Assembly (NCBI GenBank): GCA_964016885.1
Contig: OZ024750.1
Span: 14,136,001-14,200,000 of the forward strand
Origin: Eledone cirrhosa
Taxonomy: Eukaryota
Direction of reading: 5' to 3'
DNA: 64,000 nt
The notes under the pieces are model-generated. The model had not been told where the DNA came from. It saw only the letters and a program-made list of their open reading frames with translations, and did no database searches. A program made the position numbers and the translations under genes. Positions 10,113 to 63,131 of this stretch are shown here, one piece after another; the first letter of the stretch is position 1; each line of letters begins with the position of its first letter.

Positions 10113-11964
10113 TTTGGCGATGGTGAAAATAAAAACAACATATATGGAAATACAAATAAATGAGAATTATATTTCGTAAAAAAACAAAGCAAATAAATAT
10201 TTTTTTTTTTAAATGGAAAATATTTAATATGAAAAAAAAAAAAAAATGGATGATTGAAAAAAAAAAGGATAAACTCTAAATATCATCGTAATAATGAACA
10301 ATATGACTGAAAGATGGAGGAAGATAAAGATTTTGTTTTTAACAGGAAGGAAGAAGGATTTTAAGTAATTAGAGTGCTGGGAGTGTTTGTAATAGAGTAT
10401 TGAGGCGGCGAATTGGTAGAGTGGTTAGGACTTTGGATAAACTGTTTTGTGCAATATATTTGTTTCGGTTCTTTGCGCTCTCTGAGTTCAAATCCTGTCG
10501 AGGCCAACTTTGCTTTTCATCCTTTCGAGGTCGATAAAAAGAAAGGTACCTGTTGAGAGTGCTGTGGTCAATTCTTCCTCCTCCGTATCACTTTCACACT
10601 TCGCCAGGTTTAAAATGCCCAAGACACGCTGCATGTCATTACGGCGCCCTTACGAATCCACCAGTAGATACAGGTCCTTACATACGTACGTTTAATTTAT
10701 AAGCCCGGAAAAATGAACCTGAGCCGAATGGGAACCCCGAACATAAAAGTACGTAGCCATTATAAATTCTTTGACGCCATGCTTTCCAGTATAGTTACGT
10801 CCCTTTACGGTCTGAGTTCAAATCCCGTCGAGGTTAACTTTGCCTTTCATCCTTACGGGGTCGATAAAATAAAGTACCAGTAATGTACTGGGTAATTACT
10901 GGACTTGTGCCAAAAGTAGAAACAATTATAAATTCCTTGTCTTTGTAGGATTTCAACTCAGTGTGCAGCGAGCCAGAACGAAATAACGCAACACATTCTA
11001 TCCGACCTTCTACCGCCTGTTTTAACCCTTTAGCATATGTTATTTTAGTTATTTTACACATGTCACTCACAATGTTATCTTCGTATTTCAGCTAAAAGAA
11101 TCCAAAAGAACCAGTCTTCGGTGTCACAACAGCACTTTTATCGACAACAACAACAACAACAACCCTAATAATCTCTAATGTTCAACAGAACGTCTCTTTG
11201 TACGTTGTACTTAACTTCTGTGGTATATATGTTTAATTGGTTAATAGTATGAGTTGCCAAACAATAATTCTTTTCTTTGCTGAGATGTCCTAATAAAATC
11301 ATTTACCATGCTTCTCACTAACTCCACTACATTTAGTCAAGGTGATATATAAACATGAATGAAGAAAACATATTTTCAAATATATAGGGTTGCCCCTGTT
11401 TTGATGGGACCCGCGGTATGTGTTCTACTAAATTTCTATCGTTGTTATATAACACTAGGTCGGACGCCATGCTTTGCAGCAAAGAGTTACGGCCCTTTAT
11501 GGTCTGGGTTCAAATCCTGCCGAGGTTAACTTTGCTTTCATCTTTACGGGGTCGATAAAATACCAGTAATACACTGGGGTAATTGCTGGCCTTGTCCCAA
11601 AAGTGGAAACAGTTATATAACAATAGGGTCAACCCTTATCAAGCATGCGTGTGCCATTCCAGTAATCAGCCGAATGACTAGGTACCTTCCACTGACCTAT
11701 TGTACCAGATACGCCATGCCTCCATCTAGCTTAGGACCATACAGTATATTCAGACCAGGGTCGGAAAATCCATTTCAGGCCCTAAGCACTTAAAAAATGA
11801 TAGTACTCACACGCTCCATTTATAGGGTTCCCCAAAACTCCCAATTTTTTTTTAATGGCAATACATCTAATTTGAATAAAGTTATGCTCCTCTTGCCTTG
11901 ATGTCCTTAGCCTGTTTATTTTACTTAATGGTTAATCTAGGTAGTTAGATAGGTAGATAGGTAA

Positions 11965-12007
<43 letters not shown>

Positions 12008-12267
12008 GTAAATAGATAGATAGGTAGATAGGTAAATAGATAGATAGATAGATTTCTTTATTTACCATAAAGGCATAAAAAGAAGGGACAAATACAAAGG
12101 GGGAGTTTACATATAGTCGAGTAAAAAGGGTGTAACATGAAAATAATCGAAAATAACCTCAAAAGGGAGGGGACGTGATGGGGGTTGCACACACCCCCGA
12201 AAAAGTGTGCAATCCTTTGCCCGGGGAGCACATGGAGAAGGCGCTCCCCTCTCCTTTACTTCTTTAC

Positions 12268-15200
12268 CTACAGGATGGTATACAGAGAAGGCCCATTTAC
12301 ACGAGCCATTCTCGCCACTATCACCCACCTTTCATAAAACTGCCTGTGGCCAAGCACCTCTCTCTCCATTCTTATCCTTCTTCCGAAGTGATATCGGAAG
12401 AAGTAGACCAGACTATGGCCAGAGAGGAAGTTGCCTGACCTCAGACCTTTCAATCGTGTCCACCAAACAACCTCTTTCAACATGGCTATTACGCACAGAA
12501 AAACCGCCTTTGCTTCCTTTGTGAAGAGGGGAGGCGGTTTGATTGTCATCACGGACTCGGCTGTCAATTTAATCGGCGCCACCCGCGACAGCAGTTGTTC
12601 GGCGTAGCCCCACAGATCAGCCACGCCCGGACATTGCACCAATGCGTGCGCCACGGTTTCTTCGTGACGCACGCATCTAGGGCAAATCTTTTTTGAGGGA
12701 TCCCTGCCCGGGCGCCCGTGTCTGTAGAGCCTCTCTCGAACGGGTAGAGCCCCTCGGTAGCACTGCCAGGCCAGTGACTTCTGGAAGTTGTCCATTGGTC
12801 CTGGGCCGAAAGTCCTACCGAACAGGCTGGCCAGTTCGTCTTCTTCCATGTCCAGCGACTCTCCAAGGGTGTCATCGCCCCTGCTAGCCACCAGCCCTCT
12901 ATAGAATGATGAGGTGGATTCTCCACCGATGGCCCGGCCCGCTTGCCAGAGAGCCCTGAGCGCCTGAGCACACTCAGTGTGCCAGTCTCCCAGTTTTCCG
13001 GATCTTTGCTTGACCCAGGACTGTAGCTCGGTGAGTGAGACGAGTCTCGGAAAGGCTCGTTTCACGAACGGAGCCCACACCGGTTGACCAGTGAGGAATA
13101 CCTGTAGGTGCCGTAGCCTTAATGCGTGCCTACGCATCATCAACCACGGCATCCCCAGCCCTCCTTTCGAAGGTTGTTGGCAGCAGATGGATCTTCTCAC
13201 CATAGGAGGACGCTTCTTCCAAAGAAATTGGAAGAGCATGCGTTCCATGGTGGTGAGTGTTTCCTTAGGGCAAGGCACGACAGTCAGGCGGTAGTAAGTG
13301 ACGGACGCTATGTAAATGTTCGCCACCTCCGCCCGGCCTTTTAGGGACAGCTTACACTTGGCCCATTTCTGGGTTAGTGCAAACACCTTGTTCGTAACCT
13401 CGTTCCAGTTCTTTTCCACCTGGAGGTCCGGTCCAAACCAGACCCCAAGCAACTTTACCGGGCCCTCCGTCCAGTGTCCGACGACACCATCGGGAGGCAT
13501 CGGTCTGCCTCTCCACGTTCCGAGTTGCAGCCCGATGGATTTTTCCCGGTTCAGTTTCGCTCCTGACAACCTTTCGTACTCCTCCAGTAAGGTACCGATC
13601 GCCTCGATCTCCGAGTCGGTTGATACCATTACTGTTACGTCATCGGCGTAGGCCGACACCGCTTTGCTCAATCCTGGTTCCAGGGGGATACCCTGCAACA
13701 ACTCCAACTTCCTCAGTAAAGGCTCGAGAGTCAATACGTACAGAAGGGAGGAGAGAGGGCACCCCTGTCGAATGGATCGTGTGATTTCGAACGGCTTCGA
13801 AAGGTAGCCGTTCACCTTGATCCTAGAACAGATGTGGTTGCTATGTAGGGCAGTGATCCAGCCTCTGAAAACAGGACCGAACCCAGCCGCCGCTAGCACC
13901 GCATCCAGGTAACCATGGTCGACCCTATCGAAGGCCTTAGACTGATCCAAGTTGATCAGGGCCCCACCGAAGCCGGGTTTGTTGCCAACCCTCTCTATGA
14001 TGTATCGCATGAGGTGGAGGTTATCGTGAATGGACCTGGATGGGATAGCACATGTCTGCGCATCTCCCACCAGGCCACCCACGACAAGCGCCAACCTCTT
14101 TGCTAACACCTTGGCCAAAATCTTTAACTCTGTGTTTAGCAGGGTTATGGGCCGAAAATTATTTATACTATCCCCCTTGTTCTCGTCCTTCCTCACCAGC
14201 GTGACTACGCCCTTGGCTACAGAACAAGGAATTCTCCCGTTCTGCTGCCAATTGCAGTAGACCGCTTCGAGGAGTTCGGAGAAGAAGACCGGCATTGCTA
14301 AATAAAGTTCGTAAGGTATACCATCGAGACCTGGAGATTTGCGTCTGCTGCATTGGCTCAGCGCATCTCCGATCTCATCAGCCGAGATTGGTCCCTCGCA
14401 GGACTCCGCCTCTTTGTTCGAGAGACGCGGCAGGCCGTCGAGGTATGGACCGAAATCCACGCCCCGGCCCGGACCCTCGCCTCCCCCGAACAATCGGGCA
14501 AAGTGCTTTTGAAAGGCCTCGCACATCTGCTTAGGCTCCCGGATCACTCGTCCATCTTCGTCTTGCAACGACCGGATGGTGGATCGATTTCCACTTTTAG
14601 CTTCTGTCACGCGGGCCCATCCAACGGCTTTGGCCCCCTCATTACCTAGAGCACGTATTTTACTTCGAATGACGCAGCCTTCATGCTTTGCATCGAAAAA
14701 CTGGTTCAAGGCCGTCCTCGATGCCAGCACTCTGGCCACATCTTCGCTCTTGATTGCCTCTTCTAATTTACCTGTTAATTCTTTCTCGTTTCTATTCCTA
14801 TTGGCAGCTAACATCTTGCTATAACTTATTGATTCTGTTCTAATCTCTCTTTTGAGAGATGCCCACCATCGGTTGTTGACGATTGCACCCGTCAACCTCT
14901 CCTTAACTAATCTGCTAATCCGGTTTCTGTAAGTCTCTTTTGCCGGTAAAGACAAATTAAGTTTCCAGTAACCGGGACCCTGTCTATGTGTTTTCTCGAG
15001 ATTGACCACGCAGGTCACTAATTTGTGATCCGTGTAGCCAACCGTGCGCATTTCTGGACAGCTTAATATGTCCCTATCCTTACTTCTAACTAAGAATCTA
15101 TCTAAGTACGATCTAGATTGACCACTGTGGTTTCTCCAAGTCCAGGTAGGCACAGTTGGAAAATCTAGTCGATATCTATCGACCAAGTTAAAACGGTCGA

Positions 15201-15705
15201 GTAACCCCTTGAGGCTGTTACACCCCCCTCTATTAGGACATGCTCCTGCATAGTCCCAACGTGCATCTAGGATGTCATTCCAATCCCCCGCTAGAAGCAG
15301 GGAACGCGACGTTCCCAGAAAAGTCTCCAAACGCTGGAAGAAGTCGGGCCGTTCAGCTCCGAAAGGGGAGTAGACGGCGACCAGTCTCAAGGCCGCACTT
15401 TCACTACTGCCAACGTCTAGCACCAACAAACGACCCTCCGGGTCCGAGTGCACAACCTGTACGGCAAGACCCAGGTGTTTTTGCATCAGCACGACAACCC
15501 CACCCCCACCTCCAGGTTGACAGAGAGATGCATGCACCTCAAAGTCATCGAAGGTGGGGGCCAGCTGCCGCATGACGCTGATTCGAGTCTCACAGATAAC
15601 CATTACATTTATACTACATGACCTGAGGTCATTTAGAAGCTTTGCTTGCTTCCAAGTTGAGCCCAGGCCACGTGCATTCAAACATCCTACTCTTAACACA
15701 TCCAT
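12268..15705 (-). CDS. Tx1-like ORF2: apurinic-like endonuclease + reverse transcriptase + C-terminal Zn finger (1145 aa)
   Basis: EN motifs LNARGL, CET, GDWN, SYLDR, TDH; RT motifs KSPGLDG, FRPITLLN, LDQSKAFDRV, RQGCPLS, YADD; CPRC..ETVAHALVQC. Confidence 0.96.
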   Translation of the reverse strand: MDVLRVGCLNARGLGSTWKQAKLLNDLRSCSINVMVICETRISVMRQLAPTFDDFEVHASLCQPGGGGGVVVLMQKHLGLAVQVVHSDPEGRLLVLDVGSSESAALRLVAVYSPFGAERPDFFQRLETFLGTSRSLLLAGDWNDILDARWDYAGACPNRGGCNSLKGLLDRFNLVDRYRLDFPTVPTWTWRNHSGQSRSYLDRFLVRSKDRDILSCPEMRTVGYTDHKLVTCVVNLEKTHRQGPGYWKLNLSLPAKETYRNRISRLVKERLTGAIVNNRWWASLKREIRTESISYSKMLAANRNRNEKELTGKLEEAIKSEDVARVLASRTALNQFFDAKHEGCVIRSKIRALGNEGAKAVGWARVTEAKSGNRSTIRSLQDEDGRVIREPKQMCEAFQKHFARLFGGGEGPGRGVDFGPYLDGLPRLSNKEAESCEGPISADEIGDALSQCSRRKSPGLDGIPYELYLAMPVFFSELLEAVYCNWQQNGRIPCSVAKGVVTLVRKDENKGDSINNFRPITLLNTELKILAKVLAKRLALVVGGLVGDAQTCAIPSRSIHDNLHLMRYIIERVGNKPGFGGALINLDQSKAFDRVDHGYLDAVLAAAGFGPVFRGWITALHSNHICSRIKVNGYLSKPFEITRSIRQGCPLSSLLYVLTLEPLLRKLELLQGIPLEPGLSKAVSAYADDVTVMVSTDSEIEAIGTLLEEYERLSGAKLNREKSIGLQLGTWRGRPMPPDGVVGHWTEGPVKLLGVWFGPDLQVEKNWNEVTNKVFALTQKWAKCKLSLKGRAEVANIYIASVTYYRLTVVPCPKETLTTMERMLFQFLWKKRPPMVRRSICCQQPSKGGLGMPWLMMRRHALRLRHLQVFLTGQPVWAPFVKRAFPRLVSLTELQSWVKQRSGKLGDWHTECAQALRALWQAGRAIGGESTSSFYRGLVASRGDDTLGESLDMEEDELASLFGRTFGPGPMDNFQKSLAWQCYRGALPVRERLYRHGRPGRDPSKKICPRCVRHEETVAHALVQCPGVADLWGYAEQLLSRVAPIKLTAESVMTIKPPPLFTKEAKAVFLCVIAMLKEVVWWTRLKGLRSGNFLSGHSLVYFFRYHFGRRIRMEREVLGHRQFYERWVIVARMARVNGPSLYTIL

Positions 15706-15738
15706 GTGGGCGGCAGAGCCAAAGGAGAGTGTAGAGAC

Positions 15739-17616
15739 CTACCTTTCCGCTTCCCGGGGTTCGGGTTGCACGACTTCCATGGGGTCGGGGGTGTTGGGTG
15801 AAGGGGTGTCTTGTGGTGGTGTGGGGTCGTCGGTGTGTGGTGGGGTTGGGGTGTTTGGAGTTGTGTTGGGGAGGGGAAGGGGAGGGGGAAAGCTTTTTAG
15901 TAGGACGCGGTTTATGGGTTTGACAGAGGGTGGTCCTACGTCCTCCTTAAAATCCTTTTTTAGTTTTTGGTAGAGGTTCATTGGGATTTTTATTAGTTTT
16001 AAATGTGGGTGGTTTTCTGATGAAACAAAGTTTACACCTTCGGTTTGTACCGAAGGATTATTGTATATGAGTTCATTTAATTTATTATTGTTTCTGTTGA
16101 TGTAAGTATAGTGTAATGTCTTTTTTTCCGATGGTGTGAGTGTTTCGAAGAGGGGAGGGGCAGGTTTGGTTTTGTTTGTTGCTGGAGGGGTGTTTTCTGT
16201 TTTGTTAGATTGTGTTGCGATTTGGGTGGGGGTTGTTTGTCCTTGTGTGTTTTGCACATGTTTTCTTTTTTTCCTTTTAATCTGTCTGAAGGACTCCGTT
16301 TCTTCCTCCGAATTCGTTGGGTTATCTTCAGTGTTGGAGGGAAGAGGTATGTTTGCTGGTAATGTTTCCGTGTTGGTTTTCTTTGTGGGGGAGATGGATG
16401 TCACTATGTTAGACTGTGTTGTGTGTTGTGTCTGCGGTGGTTGTGTTGTTTTATTGAGTGAGAGGTTGGGTGGGCCTGTATTTTGTTTTGGGGTAATGTG
16501 TTGTGACTGTTTGTGTTGTGGTGGTGTTGTGGTGTTACTGAGGGACGGGTTGGGTGGGACTGAGTTTTGTTGTTTGTTTATCTGTTGTGGTGGTGGTGGT
16601 GGAGCTGGTGTTGGTAGCAGGGTTTTCTTTTTGTTGAGTTGGGGACAAGCGGCCTTCAGGTGCCCTCTGCCTGCACAGATATGGCAGGACGGCCTTCTCC
16701 CCTCCACGCTAATGTTTATATACCCGTGGTCCTCTAATAGGATTCTGTCGGGTATTTGGGCGATGCGTTCAGGCTTCATTTGTACTACCAGCTCTATACC
16801 TGTTCCACTGAACGCATTGCCTGTGGTTTTCCCAATGGAAATCACGTTGTCATTCACTGGATCGATGAAGCCAGCTATGAGCCAGCAGTAGTCCACATCT
16901 GGCATCATTGCATCCAGCCATATGCGTTGAGTTTTTTTCCCCATATAAGATGGATAAAAGGTGAAATTTTTCGAACGAATCGGTGACAAAGCACATTTTT
17001 TTGCCGCCGATTCGTTCTTCATGATAATTGCTAGGCTTCCATACAGTCTGTCTTTTCTTATGAAAGTTGTTTCATTCAGTACTTCTGCGAGTACTGTTTT
17101 GATATCTGCTTGAGAAGGCTGTTCAGGTTTTTTTGTACTGTTGTTGATGGTCCGAAACTTGACCGTTCGGCTTTCAATGTCTTTCGTGAATTCTTGAGGC
17201 ATTTTTACCAATAAAATACCATTCTCACCTTCACTTATGTATTGTTTTGCGTCCGTGATCCTTCGTACCACATCTGAAATGTTTTCCGCTATATAAGTCA
17301 AAGATTTCTTTGTTTTCTGTGCAAATGAAATCTTGTCGTCTGCTTTGTTTTCTGATGTTATGTTATTTTCAACTGTTATTTTTTTGTTTGTTGTGTCTTT
17401 GTTTGTGTTATTAGTATTGTCATGCAATTTTTCAAATTTTTTTTCTTCGTTGTTTTCGACATTTAATTTTTTCTCCGCAGATTCGTCCGTTTTTATTTTC
17501 ATTTTTCCTTCCTTCTCTATGACGTTAGTTGGGAAGGAAGGGAGGACTAAAGCGTGCGAGCTTACAACTCTTACCGCTGTCCCCCCACCACTATTTTCGT
17601 TCGCTGCGTTTAACAT
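15739..17616 (-). CDS. Tx1-like ORF1 (gag-like nucleic-acid-binding protein, about 625 aa from first ATG)
   Basis: Open frame; CCHC knuckle CHICAGRGHLKAAC; Pro/Thr/Gln-rich tail; basic KRKKRK patch. Confidence 0.88.
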   Translation of the reverse strand: MLNAANENSGGGTAVRVVSSHALVLPSFPTNVIEKEGKMKIKTDESAEKKLNVENNEEKKFEKLHDNTNNTNKDTTNKKITVENNITSENKADDKISFAQKTKKSLTYIAENISDVVRRITDAKQYISEGENGILLVKMPQEFTKDIESRTVKFRTINNSTKKPEQPSQADIKTVLAEVLNETTFIRKDRLYGSLAIIMKNESAAKKCALSPIRSKNFTFYPSYMGKKTQRIWLDAMMPDVDYCWLIAGFIDPVNDNVISIGKTTGNAFSGTGIELVVQMKPERIAQIPDRILLEDHGYINISVEGRRPSCHICAGRGHLKAACPQLNKKKTLLPTPAPPPPPQQINKQQNSVPPNPSLSNTTTPPQHKQSQHITPKQNTGPPNLSLNKTTQPPQTQHTTQSNIVTSISPTKKTNTETLPANIPLPSNTEDNPTNSEEETESFRQIKRKKRKHVQNTQGQTTPTQIATQSNKTENTPPATNKTKPAPPLFETLTPSEKKTLHYTYINRNNNKLNELIYNNPSVQTEGVNFVSSENHPHLKLIKIPMNLYQKLKKDFKEDVGPPSVKPINRVLLKSFPPPLPLPNTTPNTPTPPHTDDPTPPQDTPSPNTPDPMEVVQPEPREAER

Positions 17617-17849
17617 TTCTGTTAGACGATTGAAATTTTTTACACAAAATTTTTTTAAAACAGGTTTTTCACCTCTAGGAGGGGTAAAGATGAGCTGACC
17701 CACCGCCTGACAGTTCAGACGGAGGGTCAAGCTACACAATTGTATCAAAATTAAGTTTGAACTCACAAAATTTCCTCAATAAATTTGAACAAAACTTCTG
17801 TGCGAAGTGAATGACATCCACACTGTAGAACAGACGACAGCTAGATTAA

Positions 17850-17944
<95 letters not shown>

Positions 17945-17980
17945 GTAAATAGATAGATAGGTAGATAGGTATATAGATAG

Positions 17981-18350
17981 ATTTCTTTATTAGCCACAAG
18001 GGCGCAACAAGAAAGGGGACAATACAAAGACATGCCGGGGATTTTACATACAGTCGTGTAAAAAATATAAAAACAAACAATTTCAACAATCGAAATCCCC
18101 AATAGGGGGGAGGCGCCACAAATGGGTTGTTTAATACCCCGTCGATAGAACAACCCTCAACTCAAGGAGCGTGTTGTGCAAGTGCTCCTTTCTTCCTTTT
18201 GCTCTCTTCCTCAACCTACAGGCTTATAAACAGAGAAGGCCCAATCACTCGGGCCATTTTCGCTTCATTCACCCACCTTTCAGTAAATTTACTGGGGTGC
18301 AGTGCCTCTCTCTCCACCCTGATTCTCCTTCTAAAGTGATACTTAAAGAA
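17981..18350 (-). mobile_element. 5'-truncated Tx1-like copy (subfamily ending ..GPSLFISL*)
   Basis: Homologous to the ORF2 C-terminus (FFKYHFRRRIRVERE..RWV..AKMARV) plus 3'UTR; GATA repeats on both sides. Confidence 0.9.
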
Positions 18351-18399
18351 TATAGATAGATAGATAGATAGGTATATAGATAGATAGATAGATAGGTAT

Positions 18400-18470
<71 letters not shown>

Positions 18471-18471
18471 T

Positions 18472-18517
18472 ATTTCTTTATTAGCCACAGGGGCACAAAA
18501 GAAGGGGACAAATACAA

Positions 18518-18520
<3 letters not shown>
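18472..18520 (-). mobile_element. Very short Tx1-like 3' end (about 48 bp)
   Basis: ttgtatttgtccccttcttttgtgcccctgtggctaataaagaaa; GATA repeats on both sides. Confidence 0.8.
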
Positions 18521-18590
<70 letters not shown>

Positions 18591-19572: not shown

Positions 19573-20009
19573 CAGATTACAGAAAATGGTGCACCTTTAG
19601 GCTACAGTCAGCCACACGAACCTGGAACAGATCCGGAACAAGCAATGCCTGTGCTTTGAAGGTTTTTTAAGTGGGGAAAGGCCTTACACTGGACCAAACC
19701 CATTCTCTGAGCATCGAAAACACAACCTGAAAAGGAAAACTTGGCAACATTAACGGATGCTTCCGAAGAAGCTGCAGGATTTTTTTTTTTTTTTTTTTCA
19801 CCGTTTCCCCTCTCCTAGAAAGTTGTTGTGGCAACAACTGGGGGCCTTTCACTCTCTGTTGAGTTCCTCCGCCCTTTTCCGGGTCTTGTAGTTCATCCCG
19901 CAGGGTGTCCAAATATCAGCCTCCGCTTGGTGGGGTTGCCGGTTTAGTAGCTGACGACCCACCATGAGACAGGTGGTACTCGAGAGTGACCTGACATAAC
20001 ATATGACCT

Positions 20010-22485
20010 GCATGTATGTAAATATGTATGTATACATGTATACATGCATGTATGTAAATATACATGTATACATGTATACATACATGTATGTAAATATGTA
20101 TGTATACATGTATACATGCATGTATGTAAATATGTATGTATACATGTATACATGCATGTATGTAAATATGTATGTATACATATATATACATGCATGTATG
20201 TAAATATGTATGTATACATGTATACATGCATGTATGTAAATATGTATGTATACATGTATACATGTATGTATGTAAATATGTATGTATACATGTATACATG
20301 CATGTATGTAAATATGTATGTATACATGTATACATGCATGTATGTAAATATACATGTATACATGTATACATGCATGTATGTAAATATGTATGTATACATG
20401 TATACATGCATGTATGTAAATATGTATGTATACATATATATACATGCATGTATGTAAATATGTATGTATACATGTATACATGCATGTATGTAAATATGTA
20501 TGTATACATGTATACATGTATGTATGTAAATATGTATGTATACATGTATACATGCATGTATGTAAATATGTATGTATACATATATATACATGCATGTATG
20601 TATACATGTATGTATACATGTATACATACATGTATGTAAATATACATGTATACATGTATACATGCATGTATGTAAATATGTATGTATACATGTATACATG
20701 CATGTATGTAAATATGTATGTATACATATATATACATGCATGTATGTAAATATGTATGTATACATGTATACATGCATGTATGTAAATATGTATGTATACA
20801 TGTATACATGTATGTATGTAAATATGTATGTATACATGTATACATGCATGTATGTAAATATGTATGTATACATGTATACATGCATGTATGTAAATATACA
20901 TGTATACATGTATACATGCATGTATGTAAATATACATGTATACATGTATACATGCATGTATGTAAATATACATGTATACATGTATACATGCATGTATGTA
21001 AATATACATGTATACATGTATACATACATGTATGTAAATATGTATGTATACATGTATACATGCATGTATGTAAATATACATGTATACATGTATACATGCA
21101 TGTATGTAAATATACATGTATACATGTATACATGCATGTATGTAAATATGTATGTATACATGTATACATGTATGTATGTAAATATGTATGTATACATGTA
21201 TACATGCATGTATGTAAATATGTATGTATACATGTATACATGCATGTATGTAAATATACATGTATACATGTATACATACATGTATGTAAATATACATGTA
21301 TACATGTATACATACATGTATGTAAATATGTATGTATACATGTATACATGCATGTATGTAAATATGTATGTATACATATATATACATGCATGTATGTAAA
21401 TATGTATGTATACATGTATACATGCATGTATGTAAATATACATGTATGCATGTATACATGCATGTATGTAAATATACATGTATGTAAATATGTATGTATA
21501 CATGTATACATGCATGTATGTAAATATACATGTATACATGTATACATGTATGTATGTAAATATGTATGTATACATGTATACATGCATGTATGTAAATATA
21601 CATGTATACATGTATACATGCATGTATGTAAATATACATGTATGCATGTATACATGCATGTATGTAAATATACATGTATGTAAATATGTATGTATACATG
21701 TATACATGCATGTATGTAAATATACATGTATACATGTATACATACATGTATGTAAATATGTATGTATACATGTATACATGCATGTATGTAAATATACATG
21801 TATACATGTATACATACATGTATGTAAATATGTATGTATACATGTATACATGCATGTATGTAAATATGTATGTATACATGTATACATGCATGTATGTAAA
21901 TATGTATGTATACATGTATACATGCATGTATGTAAATATACATGTATACATGTATACATGCATGTATGTAAATATGTATGTATACATGTATACATACATG
22001 TATGTAAATATGTATGTATACATGTATACATGCATGTATGTAAATATGTATGTATACATGTATACATGCATGTATGTAAATATGTATGTATACATGTATA
22101 CATGCATGTATGTAAATATGTATGTATACATGTATACATGCATGTATGTAAATATGTATGTATACATGTATACATGCATGTATGTAAATATACATGTATG
22201 TAAATATGTATGTATACATGTATACATGCATGTATGTAAATATACATGTATACATGTATACATGCATGTATGTAAATATACATGTATACATGTATACATG
22301 TATGTATGTAAATATGTATGTATACATGTATACATGCATGTATGTAAATATACATGTATACATGTATACATGTATACATGTATACATACATGTATGTAAA
22401 TATGAATGTATACATGTATACATACATGTATGTAAATATGTATGTATACATATATATACATGCATGTATGTAAATATGTATGTAT
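20010..22485. repeat. 36-bp minisatellite in protease intron 6
   Basis: Unit catgtatgtaaatatgtatgtatacatgtatacatg. Confidence 0.96.
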
Positions 22486-22828: not shown

Positions 22829-23175
22829 GAAGATTGAAGAAGGATAAGAATGGAGAGAGAGGTGCTTGGCCACAGGCAGTTTTATGAAAGGTGGGTGATA
22901 GTGGCGAGAATGGCTCGTGTAAATGGGTCTTCTCTGTATACCATCCTGTAGGTAAAGAAGTAAAGGAGAGGGGAGCACCTTCTCCATGTGCTCCCTGGGC
23001 AAAGGATTGCACACTTTTTCGGGGGTGTGTGCAACCCCCATCACGTCCCCTCCCTTTTGAGGTTATTTTCGATTATTTTCATTTTATACCCTTTTTACTC
23101 GATTGTATGTAAACTCCCCCTTTGTATTTGTCCCTTCTTTTTATGCCTTTATGGTAAATAAAGAAATATATCTAT
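22829..23175 (+). mobile_element. 5'-truncated Tx1-like copy in protease intron 5, nearly identical to the 3' end of the full-length copy
   Basis: Reverse complement of about 12050-12385; 13-bp TSD ctatctctctaag at 22816-22828 and 23176-23188. Confidence 0.92.
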
Positions 23176-23282: not shown

Positions 23283-23348
23283 TTGTATGTAAACTTCCCC
23301 CTTTGTATTTGTCCCCTTCTTTTGTGCCCCTGTGGCTAATAAAGAAAC
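23283..23348 (+). mobile_element. Short Tx1-like 3' end
   Basis: Same 3'UTR terminus as 18472-18520; TATC repeats on both sides. Confidence 0.8.
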
Positions 23349-33974: not shown

Positions 33975-35326
33975 TGTATTTGTGTGCGTATGTATGTGTG
34001 CCTCTGTGTGTATTTGTATATGTATGCGTGTATGTATATGCATGCATGTGTATATGTGTATATGTTCGTATATGTGTGTATATATGTGTGTATGTATCTG
34101 TGTATGTACATGTGTGTGTATGTGTATGTGTGCCTCTGTGTGTATTTGTATATGTATGCGTGTATGTATATGCATGCATGTGTATATGTGTATATGTTTG
34201 TATATGTGTGTATATATGTGTGTGTGTGTATGTATATGTGTGTATGTACATGTGTGTGTATGTGTATGTATGTGTGCCTCTGTGTGTATTTGTGTATGTA
34301 TATGCATGCATGTGTATATGTGTATATGTTTGTATATGTGTGTATATATGTGTGTGTGTGTATGTATATGTGTGTATGTACATGTGTGTGTATGTGTATG
34401 TGTGCCTCTGTGTGTATTTGTATATGTATGCGTGTATGTATATGCATGCATGTGTATATGTGTATATGTTTGTATATGTGTGTATATATGTGTGTGTGTG
34501 TGTATGTATATGTGTGTATGTACATGTGTGTGTATGTGTATGTATGTGTGCCTCTGTGTGTATTTGTGTATGTATATGCATGCATGTGTATATGTGTATA
34601 TGTTTGTATATGTGTGTATATATGTGTGTGTGTGTATGTATATGTGTGTGTATGTACATGTGTGTGTATGTGTATGTATGTGTGCCTCTGTGTGTATTTG
34701 TGTATGTATATGCATGCATGTGTATATGTGTATATGTTTGTATATGTGTGTATATATGTGTGTGTGTGTATGTATATGTGTGTATGTACATGTGTGTGTA
34801 TGTGTATGTATGTGTGCCTCTGTGTGTATTTGTGTATATATATGCATGCATGTGTATATGTGTATATGTTTGTATATGTGTGTATATATGTGTGTGTGTG
34901 TATGTATATGTGTGTATGTACATGTGTGTGTATGTGTATGTATGTGTGCCTCTGTGTGTATTTGTGTATGTATATGCATGCATGTGTATATGTGTATATG
35001 TTTGTATATGTGTGTATATATGTGTGTGTGTGTGTATGTATATGTGTGTATGTACATGTGTGTGTATGTGTATGTATGTGTGCCTCTGTGTGTATTTGTG
35101 TATGTATATGCATGCATGTGTATATGTGTATATGTTTGTATATGTGTGTATATATGTGTGTGTGTGTATGTATATGTGTGTGTATGTACATGTGTGTGTA
35201 TGTGTATGTATGTGTGCCTCTGTGTGTATTTGTGTATGTATATGCATGCATGTGTATATGTGTATATGTTTGTATATGTGTGTATATATGTGTGTGTGTA
35301 TGTATGTATGTATGTGTGTATGTACA

Positions 35327-35330
<4 letters not shown>
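33975..35330. repeat. ~130-bp higher-order TG/TA minisatellite (about 10 units) in intron 2
   Basis: Marker gcctctgtgtgtatttg recurs every 123-146 bp. Confidence 0.93.
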
Positions 35331-35396
<66 letters not shown>

Positions 35397-55604: not shown

Positions 55605-56820
55605 ATATATCATCATCATCATCATCATCACCGTTTTACGTCCGTTCTTCCACGCTAGCATGGGTTAGACGGGTTGTCCTGTTGTGGGCAGTGTCTGGTC
55701 GGCTGACCATGCCTTGCTCATACAGGAACTGATCTGGCTTGATTTCTACAGCTGGATGCCCTTCCTAACACCAACCTCATTTACAGTGAGTGCTGGGTGC
55801 TTTTTCGTGGCGCCTACACGTCCACTTTACAGTGTGGGCTGGGTGCTTTTTTGCCGTGGCACCTCCACGACCACCTTGCGGTGGGGGGAGTGGGGGCATA
55901 TTGTTTATATGCTTCAGCATGTACCCATGGGAGGTCGGGTACCCTGTATTACTGCGTGACGCCAGAAGTCACGGTCGTGTGTCATTGACTTTGAGAGGTG
56001 TAGTTGGGTAAGGTCGGCTTTTATCACCTCATCCCAAGTCATCTTGGGTCTCCCCACTCCGCGGTTTCCATCAATTTCTAGTGCTCTGCACCTTTTTATG
56101 CAGCTGTCATCCTTCATACGCATCACATGTCCATACCAGCGTAACCGCCTCTCCTGCACGCAGCATTTGATTCCTCTTATGCTCAGTCTCTCTCTCAATT
56201 TCTTTATGCTTTGTCGTTCACGTATATTACTGTTACACATCCATCGGAGCATGCAGGCTTCGTTTCTCTCTAATCTACGTAAGTCTTCCACCTTCAGCGC
56301 CCAGGTCTCACTACCATGCAACATCGCTGTTCGGATACACGCATCATACAGTCTGCCTTTCATTCTGAGGGAGAAGCCTTTTGCAGCTAGCAGTGGTAGT
56401 AGTTCCCTAAACTTCTTCCATCCCGTTCTTACCCTAGTTATTGTACTTTCTGAGCACCCACCTCCGTTGCTAATTCGGTCACCTAGGTAGCAGAAGCTGT
56501 CTACTGTTTCTACAGGGCCCTCCCAGAGATTGGTGGTACTTGTTTCCTGTGGCTGTTTGCTTGCTGTTTCAGCACAGCTGCTGCATGTGAATCCTACATT
56601 CTTAATTAAGCTTCCTGAGATCCCGCTACATCTCTTGTGTACCCATTGTTTGCATTTGGGGCAGAGAATGGAGTTCCTACCTACACCTTTCCTACATACT
56701 GAGCAAGGCCATTTCCCTGAGGGGATCTGGGTTCTGTTTTCTCGTCTACTTATAAGGACCTTAGTCTTTGTCATGTTGACTTTGAGGCCCTTTCTCTCTA
56801 GTCCCGGCTTCCAGGTTTGG
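55605..56820 (-). mobile_element. 5'-truncated RTE-clade LINE with (GAT)n tail
   Basis: ORF 55914-56820: KTK..VDSFCYLG..RTGWKKF..MLHGSETW..RRLRWYGHVMR..GRPKMTW; tail gacgtaaaacggt(gat)n. Confidence 0.92.
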
Positions 56821-56821
56821 A

Positions 56822-56856
<35 letters not shown>

Positions 56857-58290: not shown

Positions 58291-58584
58291 CCAATGATGG
58301 GCTTCATAGTAAAAGAATATTTGATTTAATAACTCCTTCATTACTACATTCTATATAAAGATGCTCAAATCGTTGGGTTTTCCTGAAAATTCTCCCTTTT
58401 GTCACTCTGGACAACACTTACATATTGGATTTTACATTCATGTAAATCGAACTTTATTCTGTCTATGTATCCGTTTATCTTTGAACTGCTATTAGGACTC
58501 CTTATCTGCTGCTGTTGTTGTCGTTGTAAGGCAGATACATTGGTATATATACATAAATAGCAATAGACAGACAGACAGACAAAC

Positions 58585-61500
58585 CGTGAGGTAGATAGAC
58601 AGATGGGCAGGGAGAGATACAGACAGATAAATAGATATCTTTAGGTAGGAAGATAAGCAGACAGGCAAGTAAAGATACAGACAGGCAGACAGTGAGGTAG
58701 ATAGACAGATGGGCAGGGAGAGATACAGACAGGCAGACAGTGAGGTAGATAGACAGATGGGCAGGGAGAGATACAGACAGGCAGACAGTGAGGTAGATAG
58801 ACAGATGGGCAGGGAGAGATACAGACAGGCAGACAGTGAGGTAGATAGACAGATGGGCAGGGAGAGATACAGACAGGCAGACAGTGAGGTAGATAGACAG
58901 ATGGGCAGGGAGAGATACAGACAGGCAGACAGTGAGGTAGATAGACAGATGGGCAGGGAGAGATACAGACAGGCAGACAGTGAGGTAGATAAACAGATGG
59001 GCAGGGAGAGATACAGACAGGCAGACAGTGAGGTAGATAAACAGATGGGCAGGGAGAGATACAGACAGGCAGACAGTGAGGTAGATAAACAGATGGGCAG
59101 GGAGAGATACAGACAGGCAGACAGTGAGGTAGATAGACAGATGGGCAGGGAGAGATACAGACAGGCAGACAGTGAGGTAGATAGACAGATAGGCAGGGAG
59201 AGATACAGACAGGCAGACAGTGAGGTAGATAGACAGATGGGCAGGGAGAGATACAGACAGGCAGACAGTGAGGTAGATAGACAGATGGGCAGGGAGAGAT
59301 ACAGACAGGCAGACAGTGAGGTAGATAGACAGATGGGCAGGGAGAGATACAGACAGGCAGACTGAGGTAGATAGACAGATGGGCAGGGAGAGATACAGAC
59401 AGTGAGGTAGATAGACAGATGGGCAGGGAGGGATACAGACAGGCAGACAGTGAGGTAGATAGACAGATGGGCAGGGGGAGATACAGACAGGCAGACAGTG
59501 AGGTAGATAGACAGATGGGCAGGGAGAGATACAGACAGGCAGACAGTGAGGTAGATAGACAGATGGGCAGGGAAAGATACAGACAGGCAGACAGTGAGGT
59601 AGATAGACAGATCGGCAGGGAGAGATACAGACAGGCAGACAGTGAGGTAGATAGACAGATGGGCAGGGAGAGATACAGACAGGCAGACAGTGAGGTAGAT
59701 AGACAGATGGGCAGGGAGAGATACAGACAGGCAGACAGTGAGGTAGATAGACAGATGGGCAGGGAGAGATACAGACAGGCAGACAGTGAGGTAGATAGAC
59801 AGATGGGCAGGGGGAGATACAGACAGGCAGACAGTGAGGTAGATAGACAGATGGGCAGGGAGAGATACAGACAGGCAGACAGTGAGGTAGATAGACAGAT
59901 GGGCAGGGAGAGATACAGACAGGCAGACAGTGAGGTAGATAGACAGATGGGCAGGGAGAGATACAGACAGTGAGGTAGATAGACAGATGGGCAGGGGGAG
60001 ATACAGACAGGCAGACAGTGAGGTAGATAGACAGATGGGCAGGGAGAGATACAGACAGGCAGACAGTGAGGTAGATAGACAGATGGGCAGGGAGAGATAC
60101 AGACAGGCAGACAGTGAGGTAGATAGACAGATGGGCAGGGAGAGATACAGACAGGCAGACAGTGAGGTAGATAGACAGATCGGCAGGGAGGGATACAGAC
60201 AGGCAGACAGTGAGGTAGATAGACAGATGGGCAGGGGGAGATACAGACAGGCAGACAGTGAGGTAGATAGACAGATGGGCAGGGAGAGATACAGACAGGC
60301 AGACAGTGAGGTAGATAGACAGATGGGCAGGGAGAGATACAGACAGGCAGACAGTGAGGTAGATAGACAGATGGGCAGGGAGAGATACAGACAGGCAGAC
60401 AGTGAGGTAGATAGACAGATGGGCAGGGAGAGATACAGACAGGCAGACAGTGAGGTAGATAGACAGATGGGCAGGGAGAGATACAGACAGGCAGACAGTG
60501 AGGTAGATAGACAGATGGGCAGGGAGAGATACAGACAGGCAGACAGTGAGGTAGATAGACAGATGGGCAGGGGGAGATACAGACAGGCAGACAGTGAGGT
60601 AGATAGACAGATGGGCAGGGAGAGATACAGACAGGCAGACAGTGAGGTAGATAGACAGATGGGCAGGGAGAGATACAGACAGGCAGACAGTGAGGTAGAT
60701 AGACAGATGGGCAGGGAGAGATACAGACAGTGAGGTAGATAGACAGATGGGCAGGGGGAGATACAGACAGGCAGACAGTGAGGTAGATAGACAGATGGGC
60801 AGGGAGAGATACAGACAGGCAGACAGTGAGGTAGATAGACAGGTGGGCAGGGAGAGATACAGACAGGCAGACAGTGAGGTAGATAGACAGATGGGCAGGG
60901 AGGGATACAGACAGGCAGACAGTGAGGTAGATAGACAGATCGGCAGGGAGAGATACAGACAGTGAGGTAGATAGACAGATGGGCAGGGGGAGATACAGAC
61001 AGGCAGACAGTGAGGTAGATAGACAGATGGGCAGGGAGAGATACAGACAGGCAGACAGTGAGGTAGATAGACAGATGGGCAGGGAGAGATACAGACAGGC
61101 AGACAGTGAGGTAGATAGACAGGTGGGCAGGGAGAGATACAGACAGGCAGACAGTGAGGTAGATAGACAGATGGGCAGGGAGGGATACAGACAGTGAGGT
61201 AGATAGACAGATGGGCAGGGAGAGATACAGACAGGCAGACAGTGAGGTAGATAGATAGATGGGCAGGGAGAGATACAGAGAGGCAGACAGTGAGGTAGAT
61301 AGACAGATGGGCAGGGAGAGATACAGACAGGCAGACAGTGAGGTAGATAGACAGATGGGCAGGGAGAGATACAGACAGGCAGACAGTGAGGTAGATAGAC
61401 AGATGGGCAGGGAGAGATACAGACATACAGACAGGCAGACAGTGAGGTAGATAGACAGATGGGCAGGGAGAGATACAGACAGGCAGACAGTGAGGTAGAT

Positions 61501-62010
61501 AGACAGATGGGCAGGGAGAGATACAGACAGGCAGACAGTGAGGTAGATAGACAGATGGGCAGGGAGAGATACAGACAGGCAGACAGTGAGGTAGATAGAC
61601 AGATGGGCAGGGAGAGATACAGACAGGCAGACAGTGAGGTAGATAGACAGATGGGCAGGGAGAGATACAGACAGGCAGACAGTGAGGTAGATAGACAGAT
61701 GGGCAGGGAGAGATACAGACAGGCAGACAGTGACGTAGATAGACAGATGGGCAGGGAGAGATACAGACAGGCAGACAGTGAGGTAGATAAACAGATGGGC
61801 AGGGAGAGATACAGACAGGCAGACAGTGAGGTAGATAGACAGATGGGCAGGGAGAGATACAGACAGGCAGACTTTGAGGTAGATAGACAGATGGGCAGGG
61901 AGAGATACAGACAGGCAGACAGTGAGGTAGATAGACAGATGGGCAGGGAGAGATACAGACAGGCAGACAGTGAGGTAGATAGACAGATGGGCAGGGAGAG
62001 ATACAGACAG
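58585..62010. repeat. 48-bp minisatellite, about 70 copies
   Basis: Unit agacaggcagacagtgaggtagatagacagatgggcagggagagatac; recurrent 40-bp deletion variant. Confidence 0.97.
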
Positions 62011-62129
62011 ATAAATAGACATGTAGGAAGATAGGCAGGCAGACAGATAAACAAACAGATAGGTAGATAGACAGATGGGTATGTAGACAGGCAGACAGAG
62101 ATGGAGGTAAATAGATAGGCACATAGATA

Positions 62130-62705
62130 TCTTTCTTTATTTGCCACAGGGGCGTACAAAAATGGGACATTACAAGACGTGACGGCGGGGGTTTTACATA
62201 AAAATAACTTTAACATTAATAAATAACAATAAACTATATATAATAAAATAACAATTGAAATCCCCAGTAGAGGGGAACGTTACTGCAGGGTTGTTTTACA
62301 CCCCGTGGATAGAACAACCCTCAACACCAGGAACACGTTTTGTAGGTGTTCCTGTCTTCCCTCTGTTTATCTTCCTCAACCTACAGGTTTATATACAGAG
62401 AAGGCCCATTCACTCGGGCCATTTTCTCCACATTCACCCACCTTTCAGCGAATTTACTGGGGTGTAGCACCTCTCTCTCCACTCTCACCTTCCTTCTGAA
62501 GTGATACTTAAAGAAGGGGATAAGTTGTTGTCCGGAGAGAAAGGTGTTTACCCTCAGTCCTTTTAATCTCGTCCACCATATTACCTCTTTCGCCATAGCC
62601 ACTAGACAGAGGAAAACCGCCTCTCCTTCGTTCTTAAATGAAGGCGGCGGGGTGATCCTCACGATGGACTCGGCTGACAACTGGATGTGTCCCACACGTG
62701 ACAGC
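62130..62705 (-). mobile_element. 5'-truncated Tx1-like copy (subfamily ending ..GPSLYINL*)
   Basis: ORF 62381-62695 is homologous to the ORF2 C-terminus; aggtaaatagatagg at 62105-62119 and 62710-62724 as probable TSD. Confidence 0.9.
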
Positions 62706-63131
62706 AGGTAGGTAAATAGATAGGTAAATAGATAGATAGGCTGTCAGACAGCTAGATATACAGAGAAGTAGGTCGACCGACAGACAGGTAGTTGTCATGT
62801 TTGTTATAAACAAAGCTAGAGAAACACTCATATATACACATTGTTTGGGTTTGTGTTGTCAACACTGTGTGAAAAAGGAAAATGTTATTTCTAATATCCC
62901 TTACCCTCTCTTTTTCTCCACACATGTACATGCATGTGATTGTATCATCATCATCATCATCTTAACATACCTTTTCCCACGCCAGAGGTCTTTACCTGAT
63001 TTTTATAAGCTATTTTATAGCAACTGATTGTAATTGCAGTTATTTTATGTGCCTGAGCTTCCTATACATATATATATGTATATATATATATATATATATG
63101 TGTATAAATATATATATGTGTATAAATATAT

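Follow-up and report, generated by a model that had tools for sequence, protein, structure and literature searches.

A window of 64,000 nucleotides from the Eledone cirrhosa genome (contig OZ024750.1, positions 14,136,001 to 14,200,000) contains six copies of one L1/Tx1-type long interspersed nuclear element (LINE), which belong to four subfamilies (A, B, C and D), are associated with TATC repeats and lie in a single orientation relative to them. Genome-wide, this family inserts mostly into pre-existing (TATC)n arrays in fixed orientation. One branch of subfamily B, ending in TCAATA, lies outside these arrays, and its target differs from the array target in precisely the two positions altered in the tail. 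We propose, with a probability of roughly 0.7, that tail-linked site choice is a contributing mechanism, in which a short piece of the parental 3′ flank, carried on the RNA, would pair with the nicked DNA. A stronger form of this proposal describes a naturally RNA-guided LINE in which read-through bases inherited from the parent's landing site would hold the target word; with the endonuclease unaltered, a two-letter change in non-coding RNA would then have taken a branch of more than 100 copies out of GATA arrays and into dispersed AATAT sites. For this stronger form we regard the odds as even.

Copies of subfamilies A and B were counted genome-wide with exact 3′-end patterns, giving 1,421 ends for A and 1,211 for B, of which 1,004 continue TCTATC and 122 continue TCAAT; a DNA search gave 2,509 first-look candidates for C. 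The family is young; many genomic copies are 99–100% identical, with both frames still open in several full-length copies. Samples were taken from the best-scoring hits, from the first matches along contig 1 (here called unbiased) and from the TCAAT list, for which 100 of the 122 matches were read and eight rows were dropped as likely duplicates. Locus L282 was removed as a duplicate and L294 for a mis-called junction. Both junctions are resolved in 178 of the 198 distinct sampled A and B copies.

In the first B sample, 9 of 40 copies end TCAAT and have body single-nucleotide polymorphisms (SNPs) in common (8/8 vs. 1/18; 8/9 vs. 0/23). The 35 SNP-informative TCAATA copies divide into a main branch of 29 and a small branch of four, with one copy carrying both marks and one carrying none; any branch SNP is present in 2 of 34 TCTATC copies. 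The last 34 matches fetched formed a later set of 32 TCAATA copies, in which all 10 informative ones are branch-marked. An upstream TATC array was found in none of the 51 TCAATA copies of the first set and none of the 32 of the later set. Among truncated copies, the upstream array is present in 28/36 of those ending TCTATC and 0/49 of those ending TCAATA (Fisher p = 1e-15), and a family neighbour accompanies only 2 of 56 TCAATA copies. Rebuilt empty sites read YAATA in 26/28 and 18/20 TCAATA copies, as opposed to 0/80 of other copies, with the branch consensus Y^AATAT. The target duplication starts at or before AATA in nearly all cases (offset 2 or less in 27/28), indicating that the word belongs to the target DNA itself. 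TCAATC-ended copies, an internal control, are without branch SNPs and lie mostly in TATC-like sequence. In background sequence, AATAT is twice as common as TATCT.

Several individual loci of this branch are worth recording. At L442 (G000:C4:248286246-248292580), a TCAATA-branch copy sits directly behind a family 3′ end continuing TCAATAT; hence the variant is also capable of stacking in its own tail. L451 (G000:C7:77319402-77325736) is a full-length B copy without branch SNPs that lies off-array with the flank TCAATCTATATATT, and is a possible intermediate toward the TCAATAT tail. Near-identical downstream flanks with different truncation points are seen for L208/L312 and L395, and for L330 and L464; such pairs reflect either hot spots located in a different repeat or duplication of the loci. 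The TCAATA copies L361, L362 and L301 (G000:C1:35.25-36.18 Mb) and L321–L324 (C1:430.29 Mb) have been multiplied with enclosing tandem repeats, and in L361 and L362 the 5′ junction has a short additional TATC-like stretch.

The two bases that follow the AAAGAAA end of the element track subfamily and lineage (TC, TA, GA, CA and TT). TATATC-ended A copies have an A at junction position −1, a position at which C is found in 10 of the 12 rebuilt targets. This mismatch suggests that the two post-element bases are copied from the RNA and that the nick would fall two bases past the element end. The tail words compared here are the array-type TCTATCTATC and the TCAATAT of the retargeted branch.

In the mechanism we propose, transcription would pass the AATAAA signal and run a few bases into the parent's flank; as this signal ends 4 nucleotides before the element end, transcripts would enter the flank briefly. 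A loosely specific endonuclease would nick AT-rich Y^WATNT sites (sense strand), the nick lying two bases past the end of the element. The 3′ end released there would pair with 5–7 flank-derived tail bases and prime reverse transcription, the pairing picking the productive nick, and the daughter would inherit the word of its parent's flank. Inheritance of this kind would account for the array preference, the orientation, the head-to-tail stacks and the retargeting that follows an off-target landing. RNA read-through, nicking and pairing are likely steps, as judged from sequence comparison.

The alternative that survives best, though we think it unlikely, is that the endonuclease alone reads GATA repeats and that the TCAATA branch moved through a protein change outside the endonuclease, or through mobilization in trans by another element. 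A target set by the endonuclease is the textbook model for Tx1L, R1Bm and SART1/TRAS1. Sequence specificity in vitro is described for the Tx1L endonuclease in the available text of PMC1950540. A number of our own observations also weigh against tail-linked site choice. Canonical copies match the repeat over 7 or more bases, with AT at positions 5–6 in 64/69, and TCAATA copies match over only 5 bases, followed by an AT-rich pair (TA 17, AT 15 and TT 11 of 53), which suggests that TATC is favoured by the endonuclease or the array structure as well. Y-1, A1, T2 and T4 are common to both target words, so that the switch amounts to two letters; the endonuclease probably sets limits on match length and on these shared positions. 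Duplications were found in only 28/51 and 20/32 TCAATA copies. Two protein changes track the main branch, ORF1 Q460R (4/5 vs. 0/7) and ORF2 D932Y, and these are candidates for the shift together with ORF2 M858I (ORF, open reading frame). M858I is shared by the small branch and also occurs in three main-branch copies, so that, with low tree supports, the two branches may be either independent or of one origin, and the sole small-branch copy covering the endonuclease (L387) is damaged. Among A copies, those tailed with TCTATATA (five) or TATATA (four) have no SNPs convincingly in common and fall at scattered places in the tree, giving no clear second retargeted lineage.

Against a protein-based shift, no endonuclease substitution is common to the six independent main-branch copies that cover this domain (L361/L362, counted once, L363, L366, L381, L439 and L460) when compared with array-targeting B copies; L235F is present in two. 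D932Y also occurs in the array copy L197, and the small branch, without Q460R (one copy covers the site) and without D932Y, still has AATAT targets (L368, L394). The small-branch changes G480S and A1052S are likewise present in an array copy, L199. An endonuclease acting alone would also have to account for a target altered at precisely the two tail-changed positions. An earlier, sequence-only reading of the window had attributed GATA targeting to the endonuclease; this is at most half the story, given that the TCAATA branch was retargeted without a shared endonuclease change.

Other tails were surveyed for comparison with the TCAATA branch. A-subfamily ends gave only 8 pattern matches with a non-T base at tail position 0, none of them TCAATA, using a pattern that additionally required A or T nine bases on. 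Of the remaining variant tails, 30 of 161 matches were read, and these belong mostly to other subfamilies with few clear duplications.

The array target itself is well defined. (TATC)3 lies within 50 nucleotides upstream of 28/36 truncated and 5/5 full-length TCTATC-ended B copies (33/41 together), and of 50/76 A copies, including 32/50 unbiased ones. The corresponding background is 1 in 3717 bins of 50 nucleotides, and in the window 4 and 10 of 1279 bins, by strand. The shares for TCTATC-ended B and unbiased A exceed the 20% of flanks by which microsatellite-specific LINEs are defined in the available part of PMC4494074, and the predominance of non-GATA 5′ junctions that the sequence-only reading had named as evidence against itself was not seen in these two samples. 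The reversed repeat, (GATA)3, is upstream of 0/178 resolved copies. Target duplications run from the array into unique flank at L002, L014, L041, L046, L069 and L191; these duplications crossing array edges, and the upstream arrays of truncated copies, indicate that the arrays pre-exist and that the repeat is a target and not only a tail. Among truncated A copies, only 11/26 have the upstream array, several of them lacking a duplication and having perhaps undergone later rearrangement, and this too counts against our interpretation.

The family strongly prefers the word C^TATCTAT, though not exclusively; between about a quarter and a third of A copies lie off-array. Off-array copies also start at C^TAT (L033, L050, L262 and L283), in some cases in TA-rich or unique DNA. 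The flank matches TATC over at least 7 bases in 64/77 unbiased non-TCAATA copies. In a small background, 13 of 18 CTATCTAT words lie within arrays, about the observed array share, and preference for an 8-base word alone could therefore yield that share. GATA targeting in fixed orientation, as first read from the window, thus stands as a preference for existing (TATC)n and falls as a rule without exceptions. The same holds for the claim that no copy lies in TA, CA, GA or CATA tracts, which, as regards TA, is correct within the window (pure runs: AGAT-type, 308 bases; (AT), 1766; (ACAT), 896; (AC), 768; (AG), 476) and fails genome-wide at TA-rich sites in L033, L275 and L283.

Stacking is common. 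A same-strand family neighbour lies within 300 bases of 28/52 unbiased A and 10/14 unbiased TATC-type B copies, and an opposite-strand neighbour near 2/178 copies overall; these counts used three reference sequences only and are a lower bound. It is very improbable that TATC is the element's tail only, with elements building the arrays and later copies entering earlier tails, even with this degree of stacking and with two bases past the element end copied from RNA. Many truncated copies have upstream arrays without an adjacent family end, duplications join the array to unique flank, and the off-array copies L050, L262 and L350 carry just 5–9 TATC-like 3′ bases, so that long arrays are not templated by default. 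Self-seeding may nevertheless contribute to array abundance. The sequence-only reading held that a simple tail cannot explain the TATC repeats; this is borne out in that arrays pre-exist, and needs amending in that the tail is part of the mechanism, given the inherited bases and the off-array TCAATA branch. A TATC leader at the 5′ end of the full-length RNA was considered and ruled out for subfamily A, as off-array full-length copies begin directly after the duplication (L269, L273, L275, L279 and L281). Empty alleles were sought at two loci and not obtained: at L357 the sequencing-run contigs end at the array, and at L375 no joint across the insertion was present among the matches listed. Random insertion with retention in microsatellites, or an assembly artefact, can be set aside despite a genome rich in microsatellites, because the fixed strand (0/178 reversed upstream) and fixed register already contradict it, the copies are 99–100% identical and the more abundant TA, CA and CATA tracts are seldom used.

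In the window, the copies and their surrounding repeats are arranged as follows.

11938..12052, minus strand: (TATC)n array, interrupted by TACC and TATT, that borders the full-length copy at its 3′ side; the 3′ member of a probable target duplication of about 20 nucleotides lies inside it.
12053..17847, minus strand: full-length subfamily-A LINE of about 5.8 kb; it ends AATAAAGAAA, lacks poly(A) and matches many genomic copies at 99% identity.
12053..12267, minus strand: 3′ untranslated region of this copy, with AATAAA ending 4 nucleotides before the element end.
12268..15705, minus strand: ORF2, open, 1145 residues, with APE endonuclease, reverse transcriptase (YADD) and C-terminal zinc-binding region.
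15739..17616, minus strand: ORF1 from the first Met, 625 residues (stop-to-stop frame 15739-17775).
About 16645-16686, minus strand: ORF1 CCHC knuckle CHICAGRGHLKAAC, preceded by a conserved domain resembling RRM/CCHC-type clusters.
17848..17981, minus strand: (TATC)n array separating the A and B copies.
17982..18351, minus strand: subfamily-B copy truncated at the 5′ end; it spans 370 bp, shows 100% identity to other B copies and is followed by TCTATC.
18352..18472, minus strand: (TATC)n array separating the B copy and the D fragment.
18473..18518, minus strand: subfamily-D 3′ end of 46 bp, followed by TATATC.
18519..18588, minus strand: (TATC)17 array bordering the stack on its 5′ side.
22836..23166, plus strand: older truncated subfamily-A copy, followed by TATATC, with the target duplication CTATCTCTCTAAG at both sides.
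23284..23347, plus strand: subfamily-D 3′ fragment, followed by CATATC, sharing the degenerate TATC tract of the preceding copy.
62132..62707, minus strand: truncated subfamily-C copy, followed by GATATC, within degenerate TATC/TACC/TGTC sequence.

All six copies have the AAAGAAA end, two variable bases and then TATC on the sense strand. The sequence-only reading had placed each of them to within about 10–20 bases, and its minimum of three subfamilies is raised here to four. The three copies it described as stacked in tandem occupy 12053-18518, and head-to-tail stacking is also found genome-wide. TATC at both junctions, which it reported for every copy, is present on the sense strand at all 3′ ends and is degenerate at the 5′ junctions of the copies at 22836 and 62132.

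Pfam searches of ORF2 gave matches to Exo_endo_phos, RVT_1 and zf-RVT, the last scoring 26.9 bits, slightly below the 27.5 cut-off. Among solved structures, the endonuclease is matched best by human L1 ORF2p and its chimera. The order of the frames, with ORF1 before an ORF2 that carries endonuclease, reverse transcriptase and C-terminal cysteine-rich region, is that of APE-type non-LTR elements (lacking long terminal repeats) of the L1 group. Both 5′ truncation and target-site duplications are present, the latter 8–23 nucleotides long where measurable. A poly(A) tail of the vertebrate L1 type, sought as A8 within 30 nucleotides, was found in 0/198 3′ flanks. ORF1 had no match in a Pfam search, and hence no Transposase_22, the domain of vertebrate L1-type ORF1. 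Its CCHC knuckle is conserved across subfamilies, and its atlas look-alikes, which serve as a lead only, have zf-CCHC (0.91) and RRM or ZCCHC3 (0.89) domains. ORF1 proteins of the RRM and CCHC kind are linked to Tx1 in the available text of PMC5203782, and the predicted ORF1 type fits membership of the Tx1 clade.

The nearest named proteins are hypothetical proteins of Argonauta hians (61% and 67% identical), followed by turtle and fish proteins without clade labels; no named animal Tx1 reference (such as Tx1L, Keno, Kibi or Koshi) is among the protein-search matches. A metagenome scan gave relatives at 23–34% identity only, and closer protein relatives in ENA are 38–53% identical. Among these is a large group (P0139–P0191), 46–53% identical over the reverse transcriptase region, from one or more other organisms. 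In Eledone itself, ORF1 relatives of 30–85% identity beside the sampled copies point to further subfamilies. At L010, L066, L071, L072, L231, L233, L234, L239, L256 and L289, further full-length subfamilies lie directly downstream in the same arrays. Their ORF1 core is 43–57% identical to that of A, and one further subfamily has TT as its two inherited bases.

Insertion into microsatellites is known for Kibi in (TC)n, Koshi in (TTC)n and crocodilian Tx1 families in (TTCC)n/(TTTC)n (PMC4494074, PMC3812793). Like the Eledone family, these are APE-type non-LTR elements preferring a microsatellite; (TATC)n/(GATA)n is not among the targets given in the available text of these two papers. There, the endonuclease is credited with the targeting, and the mechanism is called not well understood (PMC3812793). 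For RTE and Bov-B LINEs and for short interspersed nuclear elements with microsatellite-like tails, the available text proposes that repeat bases at the 3′ end of the RNA affect where cleavage occurs or how priming proceeds, and that insertion sites may switch when the tail changes (PMC6007223, PMC13295347). That proposal, as far as this text goes, rests on a cross-family correlation for the first duplication base, and tail-like targets are seldom found beside Bov-B, whereas in the Eledone family sister branches about 99% identical are compared and a five-base target word changes. The snap-velcro model of human L1 requires at least 4 bases at the primer terminus to match the RNA tail, with priming and endonuclease together shaping the sites (available text of PMC3649969). 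In humans the cell supplies the L1 tail as poly(A), which can neither be inherited nor mutate; in contrast, Eledone copies are without poly(A), and the pairing word appears to be derived from the parent's flank. For SART1Bm, R1Bm and avian R2, a short target-like 3′ RNA improves, or is needed for, accurate priming (PMC7265360, PMC13580325), but in these systems the site is set by the protein, with pairing adjusting the start more finely, and no naturally occurring switch of target linked to the tail is described in the available text.

Taken by itself, the GATA target adds modestly to a habit already known, and the main new element is tail-linked retargeting. Titles, abstract starts and term counts yielded no TATC/GATA-targeting LINE and no tail-linked Tx1 retargeting, though Repbase or supplements may list the family; Tx1 and GATA are absent from the main text of an octopus LINE paper (PMC9115989). 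The TCAATA branch is a near-isogenic natural experiment in which tail and target change together with the endonuclease unchanged, and can be tested by a two-base swap. Tail-linked retargeting would offer an evolutionary route to target switching, and would explain orientation and stacks as self-reinforcement. It is interesting to speculate that target switches among microsatellite-specific Tx1 families could start in the tail, before any protein change, and that such an element could be retargeted through tail editing.

The window contains additional repeats and one further frame of interest. An interrupted motif of about 50 bases, made of TACC and TATT variants of TATC, flanks the full-length copy on both sides (11938-12052 and 17848-17981), and may be a compound repeat unit or a long duplication. 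A GACA/GATA-rich tandem unit of about 48 bp, at about 58500-62100, adjoins the subfamily-C copy, and further long tandem arrays are located at 20009-22481 (36 bp) and 34021-35375 (134 bp). At 55914-56855, on the minus strand, a 313-residue frame contains a PHD finger and presumably resembles the C-terminal part of an RTE-type LINE ORF.

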